Numbered from the stretch's first letter, positions 3,314-18,117 are shown. The stretch: 18,117 bases of DNA from a virus (IMGVR_UViG_3300045988_142898:1-18117); one strand, 5' to 3'. A program made the numbers and translations. The notes: generated from the sequence alone by a model not told the origin.

Positions 3314-3829
3314 TTATGAGACCTCCACTTTTACTGTAACAACATTTGTATAATCAACACGCATCCTGTTATTAACTCTCAGCCTGTACTGGTAGTTGTT
3401 TCTATCAGTTGTAGCTACAAGAGTTAATTTATAAGTCTTAGCACCTTTTTCAGTACAGTCAAACCATGTTGTGCCACTGTCTGTACTATACTGCCATTGA
3501 TAAGCCGTTGCACCTGCAACAAAAGCCGATAAATCAACTGTTTTTGCTTCTTCATTTACAACTATATTCTCTGGCTCACTTAAAATAATTAAAGACTGGT
3601 CAACAATTAATGCACGTTTATCTTCATCATAAGTCAGAGAGACAATCAAGTTGCTAATATAGCTTTGTAAGATCTTATATACAAGGTCAGGCACATTATC
3701 AGCATTATCAATCAGTTCATTGACTTTTTCATATAAGCACTGTAAATTGTTCTGCAATGAAAGAGCATCATTATAAACGATAGGAAGAACAGCACTAAAT
3801 GGCCATATTAAATATAACTCATTTTTCAT
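3314..3829 (-). CDS. Tail fibre-associated protein with C-terminal Ig-like domain (171 aa)
   Basis: SD GTGAGGTGA lies upstream. The N-terminal motif (NNLQCLYEKVNELIDN) and the C-terminal AYQWQYSTDSGTTWFD domain are paralogous to the 4514-5059 product. Confidence 0.85.
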   Translation of the reverse strand: MKNELYLIWPFSAVLPIVYNDALSLQNNLQCLYEKVNELIDNADNVPDLVYKILQSYISNLIVSLTYDEDKRALIVDQSLIILSEPENIVVNEEAKTVDLSAFVAGATAYQWQYSTDSGTTWFDCTEKGAKTYKLTLVATTDRNNYQYRLRVNNRMRVDYTNVVTVKVEVS

Positions 3830-3841
3830 TTTATCACCTCA

Positions 3842-4213
3842 CTAACTTCTATTAACAAATATTGTTGCAGTATCGTTTATTTTATCACCTATTTTACAAG
3901 CAATATAGAACTTATCTCCGCCATTTACACCATAGCCATCTGAGTGGATAGCACTGTCATCATAAAGGTTTATAGTGATAATGTTATAACTTTCACCGTA
4001 TACTACATATACTGTCCAGTTTGTTTTATCATCTGAGACTAACCATATAACATCATTGTTTAATGATTTATTTATTGAAAGTGCTAAATCAACAAGTATA
4101 TTCTTTTTATACATTTCATAATATGAATACCACTTAATCATATTAGCTGTACTATCCCAATTATTGTTTGCAACACCGTTAAATGTTGCTGAACCACAAT
4201 CAAAATCAATCAT
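3842..4213 (-). CDS. C-terminal receptor-binding-like segment (tracked as a 123-aa ORF); probably not an independent gene
   Basis: The frame is open and protein-like, but no SD precedes ATG 4213. It is in frame with 4514-5059 across TAG 4514-4516 and TGA 4280-4282. Confidence 0.5.
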   Translation of the reverse strand: MIDFDCGSATFNGVANNNWDSTANMIKWYSYYEMYKKNILVDLALSINKSLNNDVIWLVSDDKTNWTVYVVYGESYNIITINLYDDSAIHSDGYGVNGGDKFYIACKIGDKINDTATIFVNRS

Positions 4214-5771: not shown

Positions 5772-6680
5772 TTAAAACCTCTTAATCATAGATGTTGCCA
5801 AAGATTCATCTTTCAAATCTTGAAAAGCATCGTCTCCATCTTCTACTTCTTTGTTTGGTTCGTCACCATCATCAAAGAACCATCTAACATTTAAACCTAA
5901 AATGTCTTTAATCTGTTCCGTAGCATAGTCTCTAGCCATGGTTCTTGAACGCCTGTTTGCAAGAGAATCAGCATTACTAGATTTTACTTCACTTGTAATC
6001 ATTCGTTCTTTTTTCTGAGCAATGACACTTGTAATACCAAGCATTGAATTGCCCTGATTGTATAACCTCTGCTGTGTTTCAAGTAAGTCCAGTGCAACAA
6101 ATGGTGCATTTAACTGAATAGCCTGAATGTCATCAGTATTGAACTTTTTAGATACTGGTATATATGGCTCATCAGCATCAACTTTTGCAATCATGTTCTT
6201 CATTGATAACTGTGAGTTTTCATTACACGCGACAACAACTGGTGTTTTCTGTGCTGTACAGTTAACATCAATCGTCCCATCTAACCTAGTAAGTCTGTAT
6301 GCCAATTCTATGAAAGATTGATAGTTGTTGATTCTTAGGTAATTGTCCCATATAATAACAAACTGACCCTTTTCAAGAACTTTGTTGTAATTTGTCCACG
6401 GATTCCATACAGTAATTCTTGTTGGATTGCCATAAGAGTCAAATACGCCCATGCTTAAATACTGCATACAGGCATACTCTTCTGCATCTTCATCATAGAA
6501 AAAAGCTACAGAACCAAGTTCAAAAAGTTTAAGAGCTAACCAACGTGCATCGACTTCAACTGGTAGACCTTCAACTCTGTATGAAGCGATAGCATTATTC
6601 GCAAATTTGAATAACCATTTATTATATTCAACTCCTTCTTTGTAAATCTTCTGAAAGAATCGTCTTTTCTGTCTGCTCAC
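5772..6680 (-). CDS. Portal / upper collar connector (phi29 gp10-like, 302 aa)
   Basis: GTG start with SD GAGGTGA. NCTAQKTPVVVACNENSQLSMKNM...APFV...QKKERMITSEVKSSN parallels phi29 gp10 [24 protein letters not shown]...APYV...EKKERMVTDEVSSN. The length is close to gp10 (309 aa). Confidence 0.92.
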   Translation of the reverse strand: MSRQKRRFFQKIYKEGVEYNKWLFKFANNAIASYRVEGLPVEVDARWLALKLFELGSVAFFYDEDAEEYACMQYLSMGVFDSYGNPTRITVWNPWTNYNKVLEKGQFVIIWDNYLRINNYQSFIELAYRLTRLDGTIDVNCTAQKTPVVVACNENSQLSMKNMIAKVDADEPYIPVSKKFNTDDIQAIQLNAPFVALDLLETQQRLYNQGNSMLGITSVIAQKKERMITSEVKSSNADSLANRRSRTMARDYATEQIKDILGLNVRWFFDDGDEPNKEVEDGDDAFQDLKDESLATSMIKRF

Positions 6681-9736: not shown

Positions 9737-10029
9737 TATTTACCCTCACTTTCATATAATAAATCGTTGAGGTTAAGGCTTTCAAGTCTTTCCTCTTCGT
9801 CAATAGGATCTTCCTGTTTTGGTTCTGGTGTTGGCGGTACAACTGCTTTTCCTTCTTTGAAACGTTCTGTATACTTCTTACGCCATTCAGCATCATTATC
9901 TTCATACCTCTGTTTCCAGTTTTCCTCATCAACACCTTCATTGTCAATAGTTTCTAACAAAGCGATTGCTTCATCATCAGTCCTATCACCCAAAAATTTA
10001 GTGATAGCATCTCTTGTAGCCTGTAACAT
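9736..10029 (-). CDS. Scaffolding protein (phi29 gp7-like, 97 aa, acidic)
   Basis: The tracked ORF starts at 10083, but ATG 10029 has AGAGGTGG 7 nt upstream. The product is highly acidic and predicted helical, about the size of phi29 gp7, and lies immediately upstream of the capsid gene. Confidence 0.7.
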   Translation of the reverse strand: MLQATRDAITKFLGDRTDDEAIALLETIDNEGVDEENWKQRYEDNDAEWRKKYTERFKEGKAVVPPTPEPKQEDPIDEEERLESLNLNDLLYESEGK

Positions 10030-10055
10030 ATTGAGTCCACCTCTTTTCTTATTAA

Positions 10056-11150
10056 CTAACGTCTTAAACAAGGATACATCCATATCGGCATCCTTGTTCT
10101 GATTCCTTTACCTGTCGGCAATGTTGGGCTGAAGCCTTGTAATAGTGTAAAATAATATTGTGCATACTTTGCCCGGTCTTCCAGTGTTGCTGACGGGTCT
10201 GATGGCCTTTCGTAACAATAGACGAAACACTTTGCCATATATCCTACTTCATCTGTTGCAATTGCAAAAGCGTCCATTGTCTGATACCTTCTATATTCCT
10301 GCGGAACACTTGAAAAGTTTGGATACCATTCAGTAGGATTGTTATTTCTTTCATCATTTAATCTCTGGCACTGGCAGTTACCATTTGCATCTAAATCAGT
10401 CTGCCATGTTGGACAATTCTGATTTAAGTAAGGGATAATAGTATCAACAGCAGGAGTCCACTGGACAAGTCCGTAACCTCTTTCATCTACTGCTACACCC
10501 TGTTCGTAAAGATCAGCACTGATAAATGACTCTATCGTCATGTTGCCGAGCATGGCGCAAATTGCGTTAATACTCCATCCTAAAGGAAGCAGAGCGTTCA
10601 CTACACAATACGCATTGTTGATAGATTTCTCATTGATATACTCTTGCCCGTACCCTGTGATTGACTGCCAGTGTAAGTCACTGGGAAAAGTGGGTGTGCC
10701 TGTGTCAACGTTCGGATAGATAAATCCTTGTAAATAGCCATTCATCCATGACGGAACATAACCATTAATTTTCTTACTCTTTTCAGTCCAGAAGTATTTG
10801 CCGGAACTCCATCCACTGTTGCTTGTAACAATGCCATCAGATGTTATCTGTTCAACTACAGCAACATGTCCTGCACCACCATTGTTATAGCCATAACAGG
10901 CAATAGCACCTAACTTTGGTTCACTTCCTTTTGCATAACCTCTTGTACGGCTGTACCAATTGGTTGCATTACTAGTGGAAAGACCAGATGGATAGACTCC
11001 GTTAATCTCATAGAATCTGCCCCAAGCATACCAAGTACAGTTGCCACCTGTCTGTTGCGGACCAAGGTTACTCTGATAAAAAATGTTGTCAGAATAGTAA
11101 TATTTACTGCCCCTCATACCATCTGTATTCAGTCTAGGTATAAAAGCCAT
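10056..11150 (-). CDS. Peptidoglycan hydrolase: N-terminal CHAP plus C-terminal phage-tail-lysozyme-like domain (364 aa)
   Basis: The CHAP Cys motif is GGNCTWYAWGRF and the His motif GHVAVVEQ. The C-terminal motifs MLGNMTIES...GYGLVQWT are typical of phage tail lysozyme domains. Confidence 0.9.
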   Translation of the reverse strand: MAFIPRLNTDGMRGSKYYYSDNIFYQSNLGPQQTGGNCTWYAWGRFYEINGVYPSGLSTSNATNWYSRTRGYAKGSEPKLGAIACYGYNNGGAGHVAVVEQITSDGIVTSNSGWSSGKYFWTEKSKKINGYVPSWMNGYLQGFIYPNVDTGTPTFPSDLHWQSITGYGQEYINEKSINNAYCVVNALLPLGWSINAICAMLGNMTIESFISADLYEQGVAVDERGYGLVQWTPAVDTIIPYLNQNCPTWQTDLDANGNCQCQRLNDERNNNPTEWYPNFSSVPQEYRRYQTMDAFAIATDEVGYMAKCFVYCYERPSDPSATLEDRAKYAQYYFTLLQGFSPTLPTGKGIRTRMPIWMYPCLRR

Positions 11151-11410
11151 TAGCGATCACCACCTAAAAGACAAGCCCACATTTTAGAACCACATGAAGA
11201 GTCTTGCTTGCCTATAACTGTGTTACCATAGGCATTTTGGATTTTCTGAAATTGGTTGATGGCGTAGACAAGGTTATCACCACAGTGGCCGTCAATAGCA
11301 AGCGGTTTACCATTCTTTCCCAAAATGCCAATTGCTCTCAAAACAGCCTGTAATACATAAACATCCTGTCCAGTACTGCCTCTTTTAACCGTTTTCACAC
11401 TTATCACCAT
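11150..11410 (-). CDS. Stand-alone peptidoglycan-binding (PG_binding_1-like) protein (82-86 aa)
   Basis: KRGSTGQDVYVLQAVLRAIGI...IDGHCGDNLVYAINQFQ fits the PG_binding_1 pattern. The stop overlaps the next start (TAATG). An alternative GTG start at 11398 has better SD spacing. Confidence 0.8.
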   Translation of the reverse strand: MVISVKTVKRGSTGQDVYVLQAVLRAIGILGKNGKPLAIDGHCGDNLVYAINQFQKIQNAYGNTVIGKQDSSCGSKMWACLLGGDR

Positions 11411-11627
11411 CCTTGCTCAGAACATCGCACAAATGCTGAATAACAAGTGTATTATTGTTCAATGCCTGTGTGACCTCAGACATTTCATTTTTGTGCTGTT
11501 CGTTAAGTTTAGCGATGTCTTCCCTGTTTCTGTCTGTGGAGTATTTAATATACCACCCCATACAGACAGCGCATACAATAGGAAAACCAACTGTCCCGAC
11601 AGCCTGCATCAAAGCGTTAACATCCAT
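11385..11627 (-). CDS. Holin candidate (BhlA/UviB-like; one N-terminal TM plus charged coiled tail, 80 aa)
   Basis: The tracked ORF uses TTG 11696; ATG 11627 has AGGA 5 nt upstream. The TM segment is AVGTVGFPIVCAVCMGWYI, followed by the charged KYSTDRNREDIAKLNEQHKNEM. It lies directly upstream of the lysin genes. Confidence 0.6.
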   Translation of the reverse strand: MDVNALMQAVGTVGFPIVCAVCMGWYIKYSTDRNREDIAKLNEQHKNEMSEVTQALNNNTLVIQHLCDVLSKDGDKCENG

Positions 11628-11704
11628 AAGCTTCCTTTCTGAGTCCACCTTTTTTGTTGTATCGTAGAATGAAGAATAACTTATAACAGAGGTCAATCCT
11701 TTCT

Positions 11705-11798
11705 AAAAATTTAAAATAGAGCCAGTCGTTTTAAGTGGACTCTGATATCCTGCATCGGCATTTTCCAGCCTTTCAGATTGATGCAAACAACTAGCTCT
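11705..11798 (-). ncRNA. Candidate ~94-nt structured RNA (pRNA-like or antitermination leader)
   Basis: It starts about 7 nt downstream of a consensus -10. The 5' end AUAGAGCUAGU (11800-11790) pairs with ACUGGCUCUAU (11726-11716) in 11 pairs including a G.U wobble, which would be a C.A mismatch on the other strand. An inner helix pairs UGCAUC with GAUGCA, and the RNA ends in UUUAAAUUUUU. Confidence 0.4.
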
Positions 11799-11804
11799 AT
11801 TGTT

Positions 11805-11833
11805 ATTATAATTCAATTATGAAATTTTGTCAA
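11805..11833 (-). promoter_or_regulatory. Consensus sigma-A promoter (leftward) upstream of the lysis and structural genes
   Basis: On the minus strand: TTGACA (11833-11828), exactly 17 nt of spacer, then TATAAT (11810-11805). Confidence 0.75.
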
Positions 11834-11845
11834 GTATATATGAAA

Positions 11846-12907
11846 TTAAGTTAACAAGCCTAATTTATCAATGGCATTAAGGAATCTGTATTTGCACGAG
11901 TAGGTTTCATAGTAGATGTATCCCAGTGCATCCCATTCACCATAAATACTGTACTTCATCTTAAAAGCTTTCTTACTGTCTTTGTTTCCGTCGTAATATT
12001 CCTCAAACTCACAATATTTATGCGTGCTTACATACAAGAAATTTGATCTAGACTTTGATAAATAAATATAGATTTTACCGAACTGACATACAGCAATTAA
12101 ATCTTTCGGATTCCCATACTTTCTCAATATGTGCGCACCATCATTATATGAAAACTCATTACTATTAGCCATCTTTGCAAACTCTGACTCGTTACCAATA
12201 GCCTTAAATAATGCTGTTTTCTTTCTCATTTCAGAAATAGGTGACTTCATGATATTAAGAAGTAGTATACCTCTATCTTCCAAAAACCTTACTTCCTGCC
12301 CTTTTCTTTGCATTTCATCATAAATGTCAACTAGATTGAATGTGTCAAGAACAGCATTATAAATATTATTTGAGTTTGCCATCATCCACATACGTAGTGG
12401 TGGCCGACCTAATACTTCTCTGTTACCTGAAACAGTAACATACATATTTGTAACGGCATCGCCCTCATTTTTAATTCGGTTGACATGGTTTTCTGGAATA
12501 AACTCATCGTAGATAATGTCTGTAATTGTGCCACCACCAAAACCACGATATTTACTTACAGCCTTTAACGAAACTGCAATTCCGATATCTTCATAAACTG
12601 GCTTTTCTTCCTCAGTCAATCCAACTATGCGAACTATTCTGGAAGCATTTCTCTCTTTTACTATATGAATATCTTCTCCCATATCCTTATTTAGCTGTGC
12701 AAACGGATTGTACTTCTCAATAGAACACAAGTCTATTTCGTCTTGTGTTCGCCTAACAAGCATAGGTGTCCACTTTTCCTCAATGCATCGTTTGAATACA
12801 CCATAGGTTTTACCTACCTGTCTTGCACCGACCATTACGATGAATGTAGGCTTAAAACCCAGTATATAATTAAAATTTAACCATCCATCTTTATCGTATA
12901 AGCTCAT
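11846..12907 (-). CDS. DNA encapsidation ATPase (phi29 gp16-like, 353 aa)
   Basis: Walker A is VGARQVGKTY (phi29 IGARGIGKSY) and Walker B is IIYDEFIPE (phi29 IVFDEFIRE). MMANSNNIYNAV parallels CLSNAVSVVNPY. SD GAAAGGTGG lies upstream. Confidence 0.93.
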   Translation of the reverse strand: MSLYDKDGWLNFNYILGFKPTFIVMVGARQVGKTYGVFKRCIEEKWTPMLVRRTQDEIDLCSIEKYNPFAQLNKDMGEDIHIVKERNASRIVRIVGLTEEEKPVYEDIGIAVSLKAVSKYRGFGGGTITDIIYDEFIPENHVNRIKNEGDAVTNMYVTVSGNREVLGRPPLRMWMMANSNNIYNAVLDTFNLVDIYDEMQRKGQEVRFLEDRGILLLNIMKSPISEMRKKTALFKAIGNESEFAKMANSNEFSYNDGAHILRKYGNPKDLIAVCQFGKIYIYLSKSRSNFLYVSTHKYCEFEEYYDGNKDSKKAFKMKYSIYGEWDALGYIYYETYSCKYRFLNAIDKLGLLT

Positions 12908-12986: not shown

Positions 12987-13316
12987 CTACGCTAATCTTG
13001 CATAGACGAACTGGCGTCCTGCTTTTGAAACGTTGCTGTCTTTAACAATTACGAAATCTTCTTCACAATCAGTAAACATATCAATGATTTCAAGATAATC
13101 ATGCCTAAATACACTACTATTTGTACCATAATACTCTTCATCTGTACCCTGTACGGCCAGAATCTCTACTTCTTTACCGTCCTGTTTTTCATCAACATAG
13201 TTGATGAAATTCTGTGTAAGTTCAAAACCATCTGGCAAGTCTTTCACGCTATGCGCATTTTTGACCGCCTTAAACTGCTCAACCTTTGAATCAATATTTG
13301 TTCTTAAAACTCTCAT
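12987..13316 (-). CDS. ssDNA-binding protein candidate (phi29 p5-like, 109 aa)
   Basis: The tracked ORF starts at 13382; ATG 13316 has AAAGGTGGA 7 nt upstream. KDLPDGFEL, the acidic middle region and VIVKDSNVSKAGRQFVYARL resemble my recollection of phi29 p5 (KNLPDGTII ... VKVVQGTSSKGNVFFSLQL). The gene has its own promoter and terminator. Confidence 0.5.
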   Translation of the reverse strand: MRVLRTNIDSKVEQFKAVKNAHSVKDLPDGFELTQNFINYVDEKQDGKEVEILAVQGTDEEYYGTNSSVFRHDYLEIIDMFTDCEEDFVIVKDSNVSKAGRQFVYARLA

Positions 13317-13361
13317 TCTCTTGTCCACCTTTTCAATTGTCTTAGTATTTACTACACTATT

Positions 13362-13390
13362 ATAATAACATATACTTATCACTATGTCAA
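13362..13390 (-). promoter_or_regulatory. Strong sigma-A-type promoter (leftward) between the polymerase and SSB-like genes
   Basis: On the minus strand: TTGACA (13390-13385), 17-nt spacer, TATTAT (13367-13362), preceded by TG (extended -10). An A-run lies upstream of the -35. Confidence 0.7.
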
Positions 13391-18005: not shown

Positions 18006-18117
18006 CCCCTAGCAAGAACCGTGCCAACTTTTCAAATGTTAGCCTCGAGTAACTACACAATGCGTCACTTTCTAAGAAACTGGGAAAATTCTAAGATTCT
18101 GCCCCCTTACGAAGTTT
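18006..18117. repeat. Right inverted terminal repeat (112 bp)
   Basis: Exact reverse complement of 1-112. Confidence 0.95.

Follow-up and report, generated by a model that had tools for sequence, protein, structure and literature searches.

A strand-specific, covarying RNA at the head of the late transcript of phi29-like gut phages, a candidate compact packaging RNA

Introduction

Packaging RNA (pRNA) is described as the only identified natural RNA that multimerises via intermolecular pairing of identical molecules; known pRNAs form two to five kissing pairs, and a core of ∼75 nt folds and self-associates alone (PMC4201828). Their sequences are ∼12% alike while the structure is kept, and the CCA-type bulge of helix A is needed for phi29 packaging (PMC5066667). 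The phi29 ATPase's C-terminal domain is without contact to the portal, the link being made by pRNA (PMC7672431), and the RKR residues of the phi29 portal are needed for pRNA binding (PMC12084888). Because pRNA makes the ATPase-portal link in phi29, relatives with a gp16-type ATPase are expected to need such an RNA. The phi29 molecule is trimmed from 174 to 120 nt (PMC11476376), and in GA-1 an operon lies downstream of the pRNA gene (PMC6266182). New pRNAs were accepted in 2025 on the criteria that the paired loops covary and that the same genome encodes homologues of gp16 and gp10; the pRNAs accepted in that year are all from Bacillus or Cytobacillus phages (PMC12670572). For Cp-1 a putative, unconfirmed pRNA has been proposed, on which a covariance model failed (PMC6266182).

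The pRNA is the least understood component of the best-studied viral packaging motor, and the question arises whether the many other phi29-like phages use an RNA too. We describe an RNA element at the start of the late transcript in a phi29-like phage genome and in distant relatives of it. In the literature searched, this element is not described and pRNA is reported only from Bacillus and Cytobacillus phages (PMC11476376, PMC12670572), the Cp-1 proposal apart; Rfam 15 holds no family for the element.

Results

Genome Context and Presumed Protein Partners

The window, that is the whole stretch of viral DNA analysed (18,117 nt, IMGVR_UViG_3300045988_142898), is a complete linear phi29-like genome with perfect 112-bp inverted terminal repeats, and its products include a type-B polymerase of the protein-primed kind, a capsid protein of phi29 type and a knob of gp9 type. 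Its nearest cultured relatives infect Amedibacillus and Clostridium innocuum. Along the minus strand the early genes come first, followed by the polymerase, an SSB-like ORF, a strong terminator and the ATPase gene; next are the promoter and RNA described below, and after them the genes for holin, lysin, scaffold, capsid and knob, then those for portal and tail. Many of the small early proteins have no assigned function. The genes that matter most for the RNA are listed here:

11846..12907, minus strand: gp16-type DNA-packaging ATPase (PF05894, E = 6e-9), the presumed RNA partner
11385..11627, minus strand: holin gene (phrog_4898), at the head of the late operon, whose transcription passes through the RNA
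5772..6680, minus strand: gp10-type portal, or connector (PF05352, E = 5e-38), the presumed docking partner

The window ATPase is 23% identical to encapsidation ATPases of Bacillus phi29-like phages (E = 2e-6), and that of the relative CI130P1 is 32% identical to phi29 gp16. The portal of the window has a basic N-terminus, MSRQKRR, which aligns with MARKR of phi29 (R3K4R5), and the CI130P1 portal starts with MSSKRRK. We considered a basic portal N-terminus as a general marker and rejected it: it was found in the window's family and CI130P1 and is missing in most others, the portals of families B, L094, L095, L096, L097 and L161 having N-termini that are not basic.

Promoter and Predicted Fold of the RNA

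The first-pass annotation of this DNA had placed a perfect TTGACA-17-TATAAT promoter, followed by a short RNA with paired ends, between the ATPase and holin genes. The promoter (11833-11805, minus strand) is indeed the sole 12/12 match among the 86 promoter-like sites in the window. The gap of 149 bp assigned to it had to be redrawn; the true intergenic space reaches the holin ATG at 11627-11625, and we rejected the TTG at 11696 as the start of a longer holin because relatives L010 and L011 do not keep it in frame with the ATG. A further promoter was sought in the stretch from the RNA to the holin gene, where a conserved TTGACC lies at ∼11694-11689 but lacks an acceptable -10. Transcription is predicted to start at ∼11800-11798, 5-7 nt past the -10 hexamer, which is the first base of helix A. 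The RNA, running from 11800 to ∼11706, is predicted to fold into a 16-bp end-pairing helix, a three-way junction and a U-rich tail, with the following features in transcript order:

11828..11833, minus strand: -35 hexamer TTGACA, sigma-70-type consensus, kept in relatives
11805..11810, minus strand: -10 hexamer TATAAT, with a 17-nt spacer from the -35
11785..11800, minus strand: helix A 5' arm AUAGAGCUAGUUGUUU, 16 pairs with 11731-11716
11780..11784, minus strand: helix C 5' arm GCAUC; U11785 can give a sixth pair
11771..11779, minus strand: 5'-side internal loop AAUCUGAAA, 9 nt, called the CE loop, in which UCUGA (11777-11773) complements the D loop
11757..11770, minus strand: helix E GGC/GCC with loop UGGAAAAU, from fold and family alignment
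11752..11756, minus strand: helix C 3' arm GAUGC, directly after helix E, without a 3'-side bulge
11737..11750, minus strand: hairpin D GGAU/GUCC with loop AUCAGA, in which UCAGA (11745-11741) complements the CE loop
11732..11736, minus strand: single-stranded junction strand ACUUA from D to A', 5 nt
11716..11731, minus strand: helix A 3' arm AAACGACUGGCUCUAU, from fold and family alignment
11705..11715, minus strand: U-rich tail UUUAAAUUUUU, likely a partial intrinsic terminator or the 3' end

The minimum free energy of the minus-strand RNA 11800-11700 was -32.8 kcal/mol (z = -4.4), and none of 200 dinucleotide shuffles was as stable; the plus strand of the same region folded more weakly (-21.8 kcal/mol, z = -2.1). 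All base-level details initially proposed for the RNA were borne out in this analysis, one alternative hairpin excepted. The helix of 11 pairs AUAGAGCUAGU/ACUGGCUCUAU with one G.U is present and extends to 16 bp, in which two G.U pairs make the helix strand-specific; the inner helix UGCAUC/GAUGCA is part of the fold, and the 3'-terminal tail lies at 11715-11705 as described. The alternative hairpin AGAGUC/GGCUCU, in which the 3' arm would pair internally, was not supported: helix A changes in relatives L025 and L011 and AGAGUC does not, so that this pairing is weakened. A simple terminator scan of the window left helix A and UUUAAAUUUUU unlisted, because the 'loop' between the two arms is a branched domain.

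Conservation and Strand Specificity Within Family A

The sample for the window's own family (family A) consisted of nine near-identical relatives from one metagenome and two more at 81-84% ATPase identity, and both promoter and RNA are kept across them. In an alignment of 10 family A sequences, 98.8% of the cells were paired and eight pairs carried two-sided changes, a result equalled by 0 of 500 shuffles; in a control with the pairing partners slid by 1-3 columns, pairing fell to 29-48%. Compensatory changes fall in several helices. Three pairs of helix A have two-sided changes within the family (GAAGC/GCUUC is found in L025 and L011), helix C reads GCAAC/GUUGC in L019 and L024 where the window has GCAUC/GAUGC (a double change from U-A to A-U), and helix E varies from GGC/GCC to GGU/ACC and UGC/GCA. 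The family A covariance model gave 112 bits on the minus strand versus 22 bits on the plus strand, in agreement with the strand specificity first claimed from the G.U wobble, and it found one copy per genome. A model built on family A alone (R1) reached other families through helix A only and was uninformative.

The Same Element in Distant Phage Families

We searched for the element further afield with an ATPase alignment against IMG/VR, by tblastn against GenBank phages, and with a motif from the E hairpin against IMG/VR. These searches gave about 15 families, whose ATPases are just 28-39% identical to that of the window. In nearly all of them TTGACA-17-TATAxT is followed immediately by an RNA of 70-90 nt with an identical order of elements, and the distance from the -10 to helix A is 5-7 nt in 9 of 10 families. 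Most families share a GGAA-type motif in the E loop (CGGAA, GGAA, CAGAA, CCGAA). The junction strand between D and A' is mostly 4-6 nt long in the parsed families (range 0-6; 1 nt in MT835998/L095) and is purine- or A-rich where it exists. The cultured Amedibacillus phage AD70P3 carries the element on the minus strand of OP172639, at 6365-6290.

A descriptor search of our own, which is blind to the loop-loop pairing, placed the element as the top match in scanned regions or whole genomes in every case except L092 (irregular), L097 (a false positive in a coding repeat) and CI130P1 (a weak candidate). In the window, where 36 kb of two-strand sequence were scanned, the element scored 65 and the runner-up 50, and in 10 of 11 families its score was above that of all 150 dinucleotide shuffles. 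The very high score at L097 3990-3911 was rejected as a GC-rich coding repeat (GPGP), and it exposes a weakness of the descriptor. In the CI130P1 candidate the long bulged helix A is doubtful, part of it being a DNA inverted repeat that spans the promoter.

An Infernal model built from family B alone gave six other families as top-scoring, each at the same genomic position. The resulting alignment A8, which is model-fitted and hence biased toward the structure, had 94.7% of cells paired and double changes at 20 of 21 pairs, with 0 of 500 shuffles equal, and all four helices covary across families in it. Compensatory changes, the evidence that the first-pass annotation had suggested looking for in related genomes, are found both within and across families. 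A second-generation multi-family model (R3) recovered family A' at E = 0.018 and gave weak hits in L096 and L092; it did not detect the window's family A, AD70P3, CI130P1/CI55P1/CI461P3, phi29 pRNA, phiCPV4, CPS1, SOCP and CS229P1. Descriptor scans near the ATPase gene or late promoter of the isolates phiCPV4, CPS1, SOCP and CS229P1 gave nothing convincing. These are cultured phi29-like phages from other lineages; phiCPV4 and CPS1 infect C. perfringens, and SOCP is Cp-1-like. Architecture, promoter geometry and the position before an orthologous holin are the only ties between family A and the other families.

Complementary Loops

In the window, UCUGA of the CE loop is the exact complement of UCAGA in the D loop, a key feature that the first-pass annotation had overlooked. 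The two loops change together in relatives: the 84% relative (L024) has UCCAA/UUGGA and the 81% relative (L025) has UCUC/GAGA, and double changes occur at two of the five kissing pairs in family A. The kissing pair of family B shows a one-sided change from G.U to A-U. Across the ∼15 families, CE loop and D loop are complementary over 3-8 bp; further matched CE/D pairs are GGACA/UGUCC, GGUUA/UAACC, AAUCA/UGAUU, ACGC/GCGU, GCUA/UAGC, GACCA/UGGUC and AAAAGGAA/UUCCUUUU. A permutation test with 14 families gave a mean of 4.36 bp for matched loops versus 2.57 bp for mismatched ones, and 0 of 100,000 permutations reached the observed value (p<1e-5).

The abutment of C and D, together with the long D-A' strand of most families, suggests by general junction rules that hairpin D points away from the C-E arm. 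If the general rules for three-way junctions apply here, such an orientation would favour an intermolecular kiss.

Position at the Start of the Late Operon

Orthologous holins lie downstream of the RNA in families A', L094, L095 and L097, and over all families the first downstream gene varies: some have a holin there, others a peptidase or a protein without known function. MT835998 carries the element at 1044-1126, where it precedes the late operon with its holin; the ATPase gene of that genome is on the opposite strand, at a distance of 8 kb. We concluded that the conserved neighbour of the element is the late operon start with its holin, not the ATPase gene, and the proximity to the ATPase gene that had been offered as an argument for a packaging role was therefore dropped.

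A U tract follows helix A in families A, B, L092, L095 and L098. It is missing in about half of the families, among them A', C, L161 and L091; in these four the RNA continues directly into a ribosome-binding site (RBS), which in L161 begins 3 nt past helix A. RNA without a U tract would stay part of the mRNA unless it is processed. We also found complementarity between the RNA and the segment before the RBS, which in the window involves the following features:

11641..11649, minus strand: leader segment GGUGGACUC just 5' of the holin RBS, 8 Watson-Crick pairs with GAGUCCAC
11742-11735, minus strand: GAGUCCAC, made up of the D-loop end, the helix D 3' arm and the junction

This leader complementarity reaches 8 bp in family B (p = 0.008) and 9 bp in L095 (p = 0.0045), with p ∼0.08 in the window; the combined p is 0.04, and it is absent in half of the families. 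Read-through may be under control in this phage, since a strong, covarying intrinsic terminator directly precedes the ATPase gene. Among the scanned proteins, including the small early ones, no Q-, N- or other anti-terminator family was recognised (PHROG, Pfam).

Discussion

A Candidate Packaging RNA

The fold is real, strand-specific, stable and covarying, and it has a fixed genomic setting. Whatever its role, the element represents an RNA class that is new, strongly covarying and widespread among the phi29-like phages of the gut.

As to that role, we lean, by a modest measure, towards a gene for a small structured RNA of the pRNA type, divergent and compact, that forms the first element of the late transcript. 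The pRNA analogue put forward in the first-pass annotation gains strong support from the covarying loops and the helix order of phi29, alongside the gp16 and gp10 genes, and loses the argument from ATPase adjacency. Chance convergence on the full pRNA architecture within the one phage group known to use pRNA seems unlikely. The wider proposition, that compact prohead RNAs of ∼70-90 nt are widespread in phi29-like phages of gut Firmicutes and form a second, deeply divergent lineage, seems to us evenly balanced.

Under the packaging-RNA reading, host RNA polymerase would start at the sigma-70 promoter, and the first bases transcribed would be the 5' arm of helix A. The RNA would fold as a three-way junction, with the C-CE loop-E arm, the arm of hairpin D, and helix A closing the ends. 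The U-rich tract past helix A would stop some polymerases and release an RNA of ∼85-95 nt, and the remaining polymerases would read on into the operon of holin, lysin, capsid and portal. Where a family lacks the terminator, release of the RNA would require trimming from the 5' end of the late mRNA. If each late mRNA yielded one RNA, the 5-6 copies required by a prohead would be covered. By analogy with phi29, UCUGA of one copy may pair with UCAGA of the neighbouring copy and so form a ring on the portal vertex of the prohead, from which helix A may project outward as a dock for the gp16-type ATPase, itself without a portal-binding nuclease domain. Ring formation, prohead binding and a role of the RNA in packaging are all carried over from phi29 in this scheme.

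Alternative Explanations

The alternative that survives best is a cis-acting 5' leader of the late operon that folds on the nascent transcript, with the kiss as an intramolecular tertiary contact; we regard it as unlikely, if well worth keeping in mind. Such a leader could act in put-like or factor-dependent anti-termination, in attenuation at helix A and the U tract, in shielding the 5' end against RNase J or RNase Y, or in translation control of the first late gene by leader pairing. The constant location of the element between a strong promoter and the first late gene, even in MT835998, fits this well, as do the several families in which the RBS comes right after helix A with no terminator. 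A helix flush with the 5' end is the expected look of a 5' stabiliser, the strong terminator upstream of the ATPase gene indicates that control of read-through may matter, and the segment before the RBS is complementary to the RNA in family B, L095 and the window (the combined p = 0.04 given above). That complementarity is however missing in half of the families, and the downstream gene differs between families. A stabiliser or attenuator needs no three-way junction, no covarying kiss and no conserved GGAA-type loop, and a closing helix of 9-17 bp is too stable for a ligand-controlled switch. The geometry of the junction, judged from general rules, should disfavour an intramolecular kiss, and no Rfam leader or riboswitch family matches.

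We consider it improbable that the RNA is a functionless short terminated transcript as in lambda PR'-6S-tR', where a phage anti-terminator would be needed for the late genes, an alternative also raised in the first-pass annotation. The likeness is that a constitutive promoter stands before the late operon and drives a short RNA whose end is a helix with a U tract: consensus promoter, stable helix and U tract precede the late operon in the window and about half of the families, a further terminator stands before the ATPase gene, and there are many small early proteins without assigned function. The contrast with lambda is that the internal fold is strongly selected here and about half of the families have no terminator; the fold is kept in A', C, L091 and L161 despite the missing U tract, and selection on internal structure and loop-loop pairing is unexpected of a by-product RNA. 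Neither a Q-like gene or protein nor a Q-binding element was identified, and the scanned proteins gave no recognised anti-terminator family. The lambda comparison accounts for just part of the data, the U tract being present in about half of the families, and it leaves the conserved three-way junction and kissing loops unexplained.

It is hardly credible that the structure arose by chance, or that it is the early operon's ordinary terminator or an inverted repeat acting at the DNA level. In most genomes it does come after the last early gene, and U residues follow it in the window; yet the promoter sits between the ATPase stop codon and the structure, the G.U pairs and the asymmetry of 112 versus 22 bits point to RNA, the helices covary across families with 28-39% identical ATPases, and the descriptor beats all 150 dinucleotide shuffles in 10 of 11 families.

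Significance

If the packaging-RNA reading is right, the essentials of a pRNA would be the kissing loops, the three-way junction and the end-closing helix, and the bulges of helix A and the U-rich junction would be dispensable. The families would then offer RNA nanotechnology dozens of naturally occurring variants of the kissing loops and the junction, and the origin of the motor's RNA component would become testable, with cultured representatives such as Amedibacillus phage AD70P3 on hand. Should the element be a cis leader instead, it would still be a new covarying RNA class that controls late genes in gut phages.

Comparison With Known Systems

No curated Rfam covariance model of any kind matched at E<=10 in the window or in the 161 nt around the element, and the related genomes scanned with Rfam were likewise without a hit. 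HK022 put and EAR resemble the element as promoter-proximal structured RNAs that head a long phage operon and may act on the polymerase. However, HK022 put consists of two stem-loops, unlike the end-closed three-way junction with kissing loops seen here, and RNAs of the put/EAR type gave no sequence or Rfam match to the element. The purine riboswitch and the type I/III hammerheads likewise combine a closing helix with two arms that touch through a tertiary contact; they differ in the junction, which here is nearly without unpaired bases except for one strand. A hammerhead or riboswitch reading was rejected, the core CUGANGA...GAAA being missing from the junction, helix A too long and stable, and an Rfam match lacking.

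The closest described system is the pRNA of phi29. Rfam RF00044 run on phi29 gave 145 bits and supplied the reference structure: helix A, helix C (5+4 bp), a 9-nt 5'-side loop carrying AACC and helix E (4 bp), then on the return side no unpaired bases, UUU, hairpin D (loop UGGUU) and helix A'. The same model gave no match at E<=10 in the whole window, in the 161 nt around the element, or in L096, L098 and L099. A second copy of the element was not found anywhere in the window genome, nor was another pRNA candidate; the first-pass annotation had already noted that no pRNA gene lies at the ends of this genome, where phi29 has its own.

Several features set the two RNAs apart. The phi29 pRNA is larger (117-174 nt versus ∼70-90 nt here), and its helix A is longer and has the CCA-type bulge, whereas helix A is continuous in the window and most families and is 6-9 bp long in some. 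Unpaired UUU separates C and D in phi29; here most families have 0-1 nt at that point and the single strand is found between D and A'. The GGAA-type motif of the E loop is a feature of the RNA described here, unlike phi29 pRNA, and the hosts are gut Firmicutes (Erysipelotrichales and relatives of Clostridia) as opposed to Bacillus for phi29. The head of the late transcript is an unusual place for a pRNA, yet it is compatible with one, given the operon downstream of the GA-1 gene and the trimming of the phi29 molecule.

The likeness extends over the whole architecture. The order of elements is identical (A, C, a 5'-side 9-nt loop, E, D, A'); helix A joins the 5' end to the 3' end, the helices meet at a three-way junction, and one arm is a simple hairpin. 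In both RNAs the loop is one-sided, neither having a 3'-side bulge, and pairs with the D loop, and the Watson-Crick complementarity of the loops covaries (over 3-8 bases here). Both start at helix A from a strong promoter of their own, A1 in phi29, the start being a predicted one here. Each is present in a single copy per genome, diverges fast in sequence and keeps its structure, and each is carried by a genome with protein-primed replication, a gp16-type ATPase and a gp10-type portal.

Genome ends and the promoter-RNA unit

The window carries perfect inverted terminal repeats of 112 bp whose first bases are AAA (1-112 and 18006-18117), which marks it as a complete genome of the linear, protein-primed kind. 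In three close relatives (L015, L020, and L022, which are L001, L006, and L008), an insertion of ~240 nt with a small ORF separates the stop of the packaging ATPase gene from the late promoter (insertion region about 3560-3810). The promoter and the pRNA-like RNA are intact 3' of this insertion, so the promoter plus RNA unit behaves as a separate module. A GGAA-type motif is found in the E loop of the RNA in most families (window 11760-11767; variants CGGAA, GGAA, CAGAA, CCGAA, and UGGAAAAU), which otherwise have no common sequence. Retention of the motif amid unrelated sequences suggests that the E loop makes a conserved contact, either to a protein or to a receptor in RNA.

Leader between the RNA and the first late gene

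The leader at 11641-11649 of the window is complementary to the RNA at 11735-11742 (minus strand), that is, to the 3' arm of hairpin D and the junction strand. The complementary segment adjoins the 5' side of the ribosome-binding site of the first late gene, and such a segment is also present in the divergent RNA-bearing families B, L095, and L096. Unlike in the window, the target in these three is the E-hairpin region: family B and L095 use the 5' strand of helix E together with the E loop, and L096 uses the end of the CE loop together with the 5' strand of helix E. The complementarity reaches significance in family B and L095 only. Another segment of the same leader is conserved:

11685-11703, minus strand: AGAAAGGAUUGACCUCUG, immediately 3' of the U tract, kept even in relatives at 81-84%

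This segment has neither a usable -10 hexamer nor a conserved reading frame. It is similar to the ribosome-binding-site context of the ATPase gene (UUUUAGAAAGGUGG).

Terminator ahead of the ATPase gene and other structures in relatives

The ATPase gene is itself preceded by a termination signal:

about 12950-12915, minus strand: strong intrinsic terminator, flanked by the SSB-like ORF (12987-13382) on one side and the start of the ATPase gene on the other

It consists of the stem-loop GGAAGAGCCACCUA-UUUAU-UGGGUGGUUCUUC followed by UAUUUU (z = -5.8), and its stem covaries in L010 and L011, two relatives from the window's family. Downstream of this terminator the ATPase gene lacks its own promoter, and its expression therefore seems to depend on read-through.

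In the divergent family L091, the stretch that separates the ATPase gene from the pRNA-like element (about 3400-3640) has an extra promoter, followed by a different structured RNA with a clean terminator at its end (GGCAGACC...GGUCUGCUUUUU). L096 carries a near-perfect long inverted repeat at 3818-3913 (GGCAGCGCCGAUGUGU...ACACAUCGGCGCUGCC), and model R1, a covariance model built on the window's own family only, scores both of its strands.

Comparison with cultured phages

In two cultured phages of the phi29-like type, Clostridium perfringens phage CPS1 (L103, 3470-3575) and phage CS229P1 (L105, 2370-2477), a consensus promoter precedes the late genes but the leader is unstructured; the RNA is thus not universal at the late-promoter position. 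It is also absent from the late promoter of the C. innocuum phages L099 (Clostridium phage CI130P1), L100, and L106. In these phages the gap of 150 nt upstream of the ATPase gene contains a TTTACA-17-TATAAT promoter, spanned by a 13-bp DNA inverted repeat, and a weaker candidate RNA that was detected by no model:

L099, about 10000-10100, minus strand: weaker candidate of the same architecture, in the gap upstream of the ATPase gene; also in L100 and L106

The candidate kissing pair is ACCA/UGGU, extended to UACCA/UGGUA in CI55P1, and is followed by a U run.
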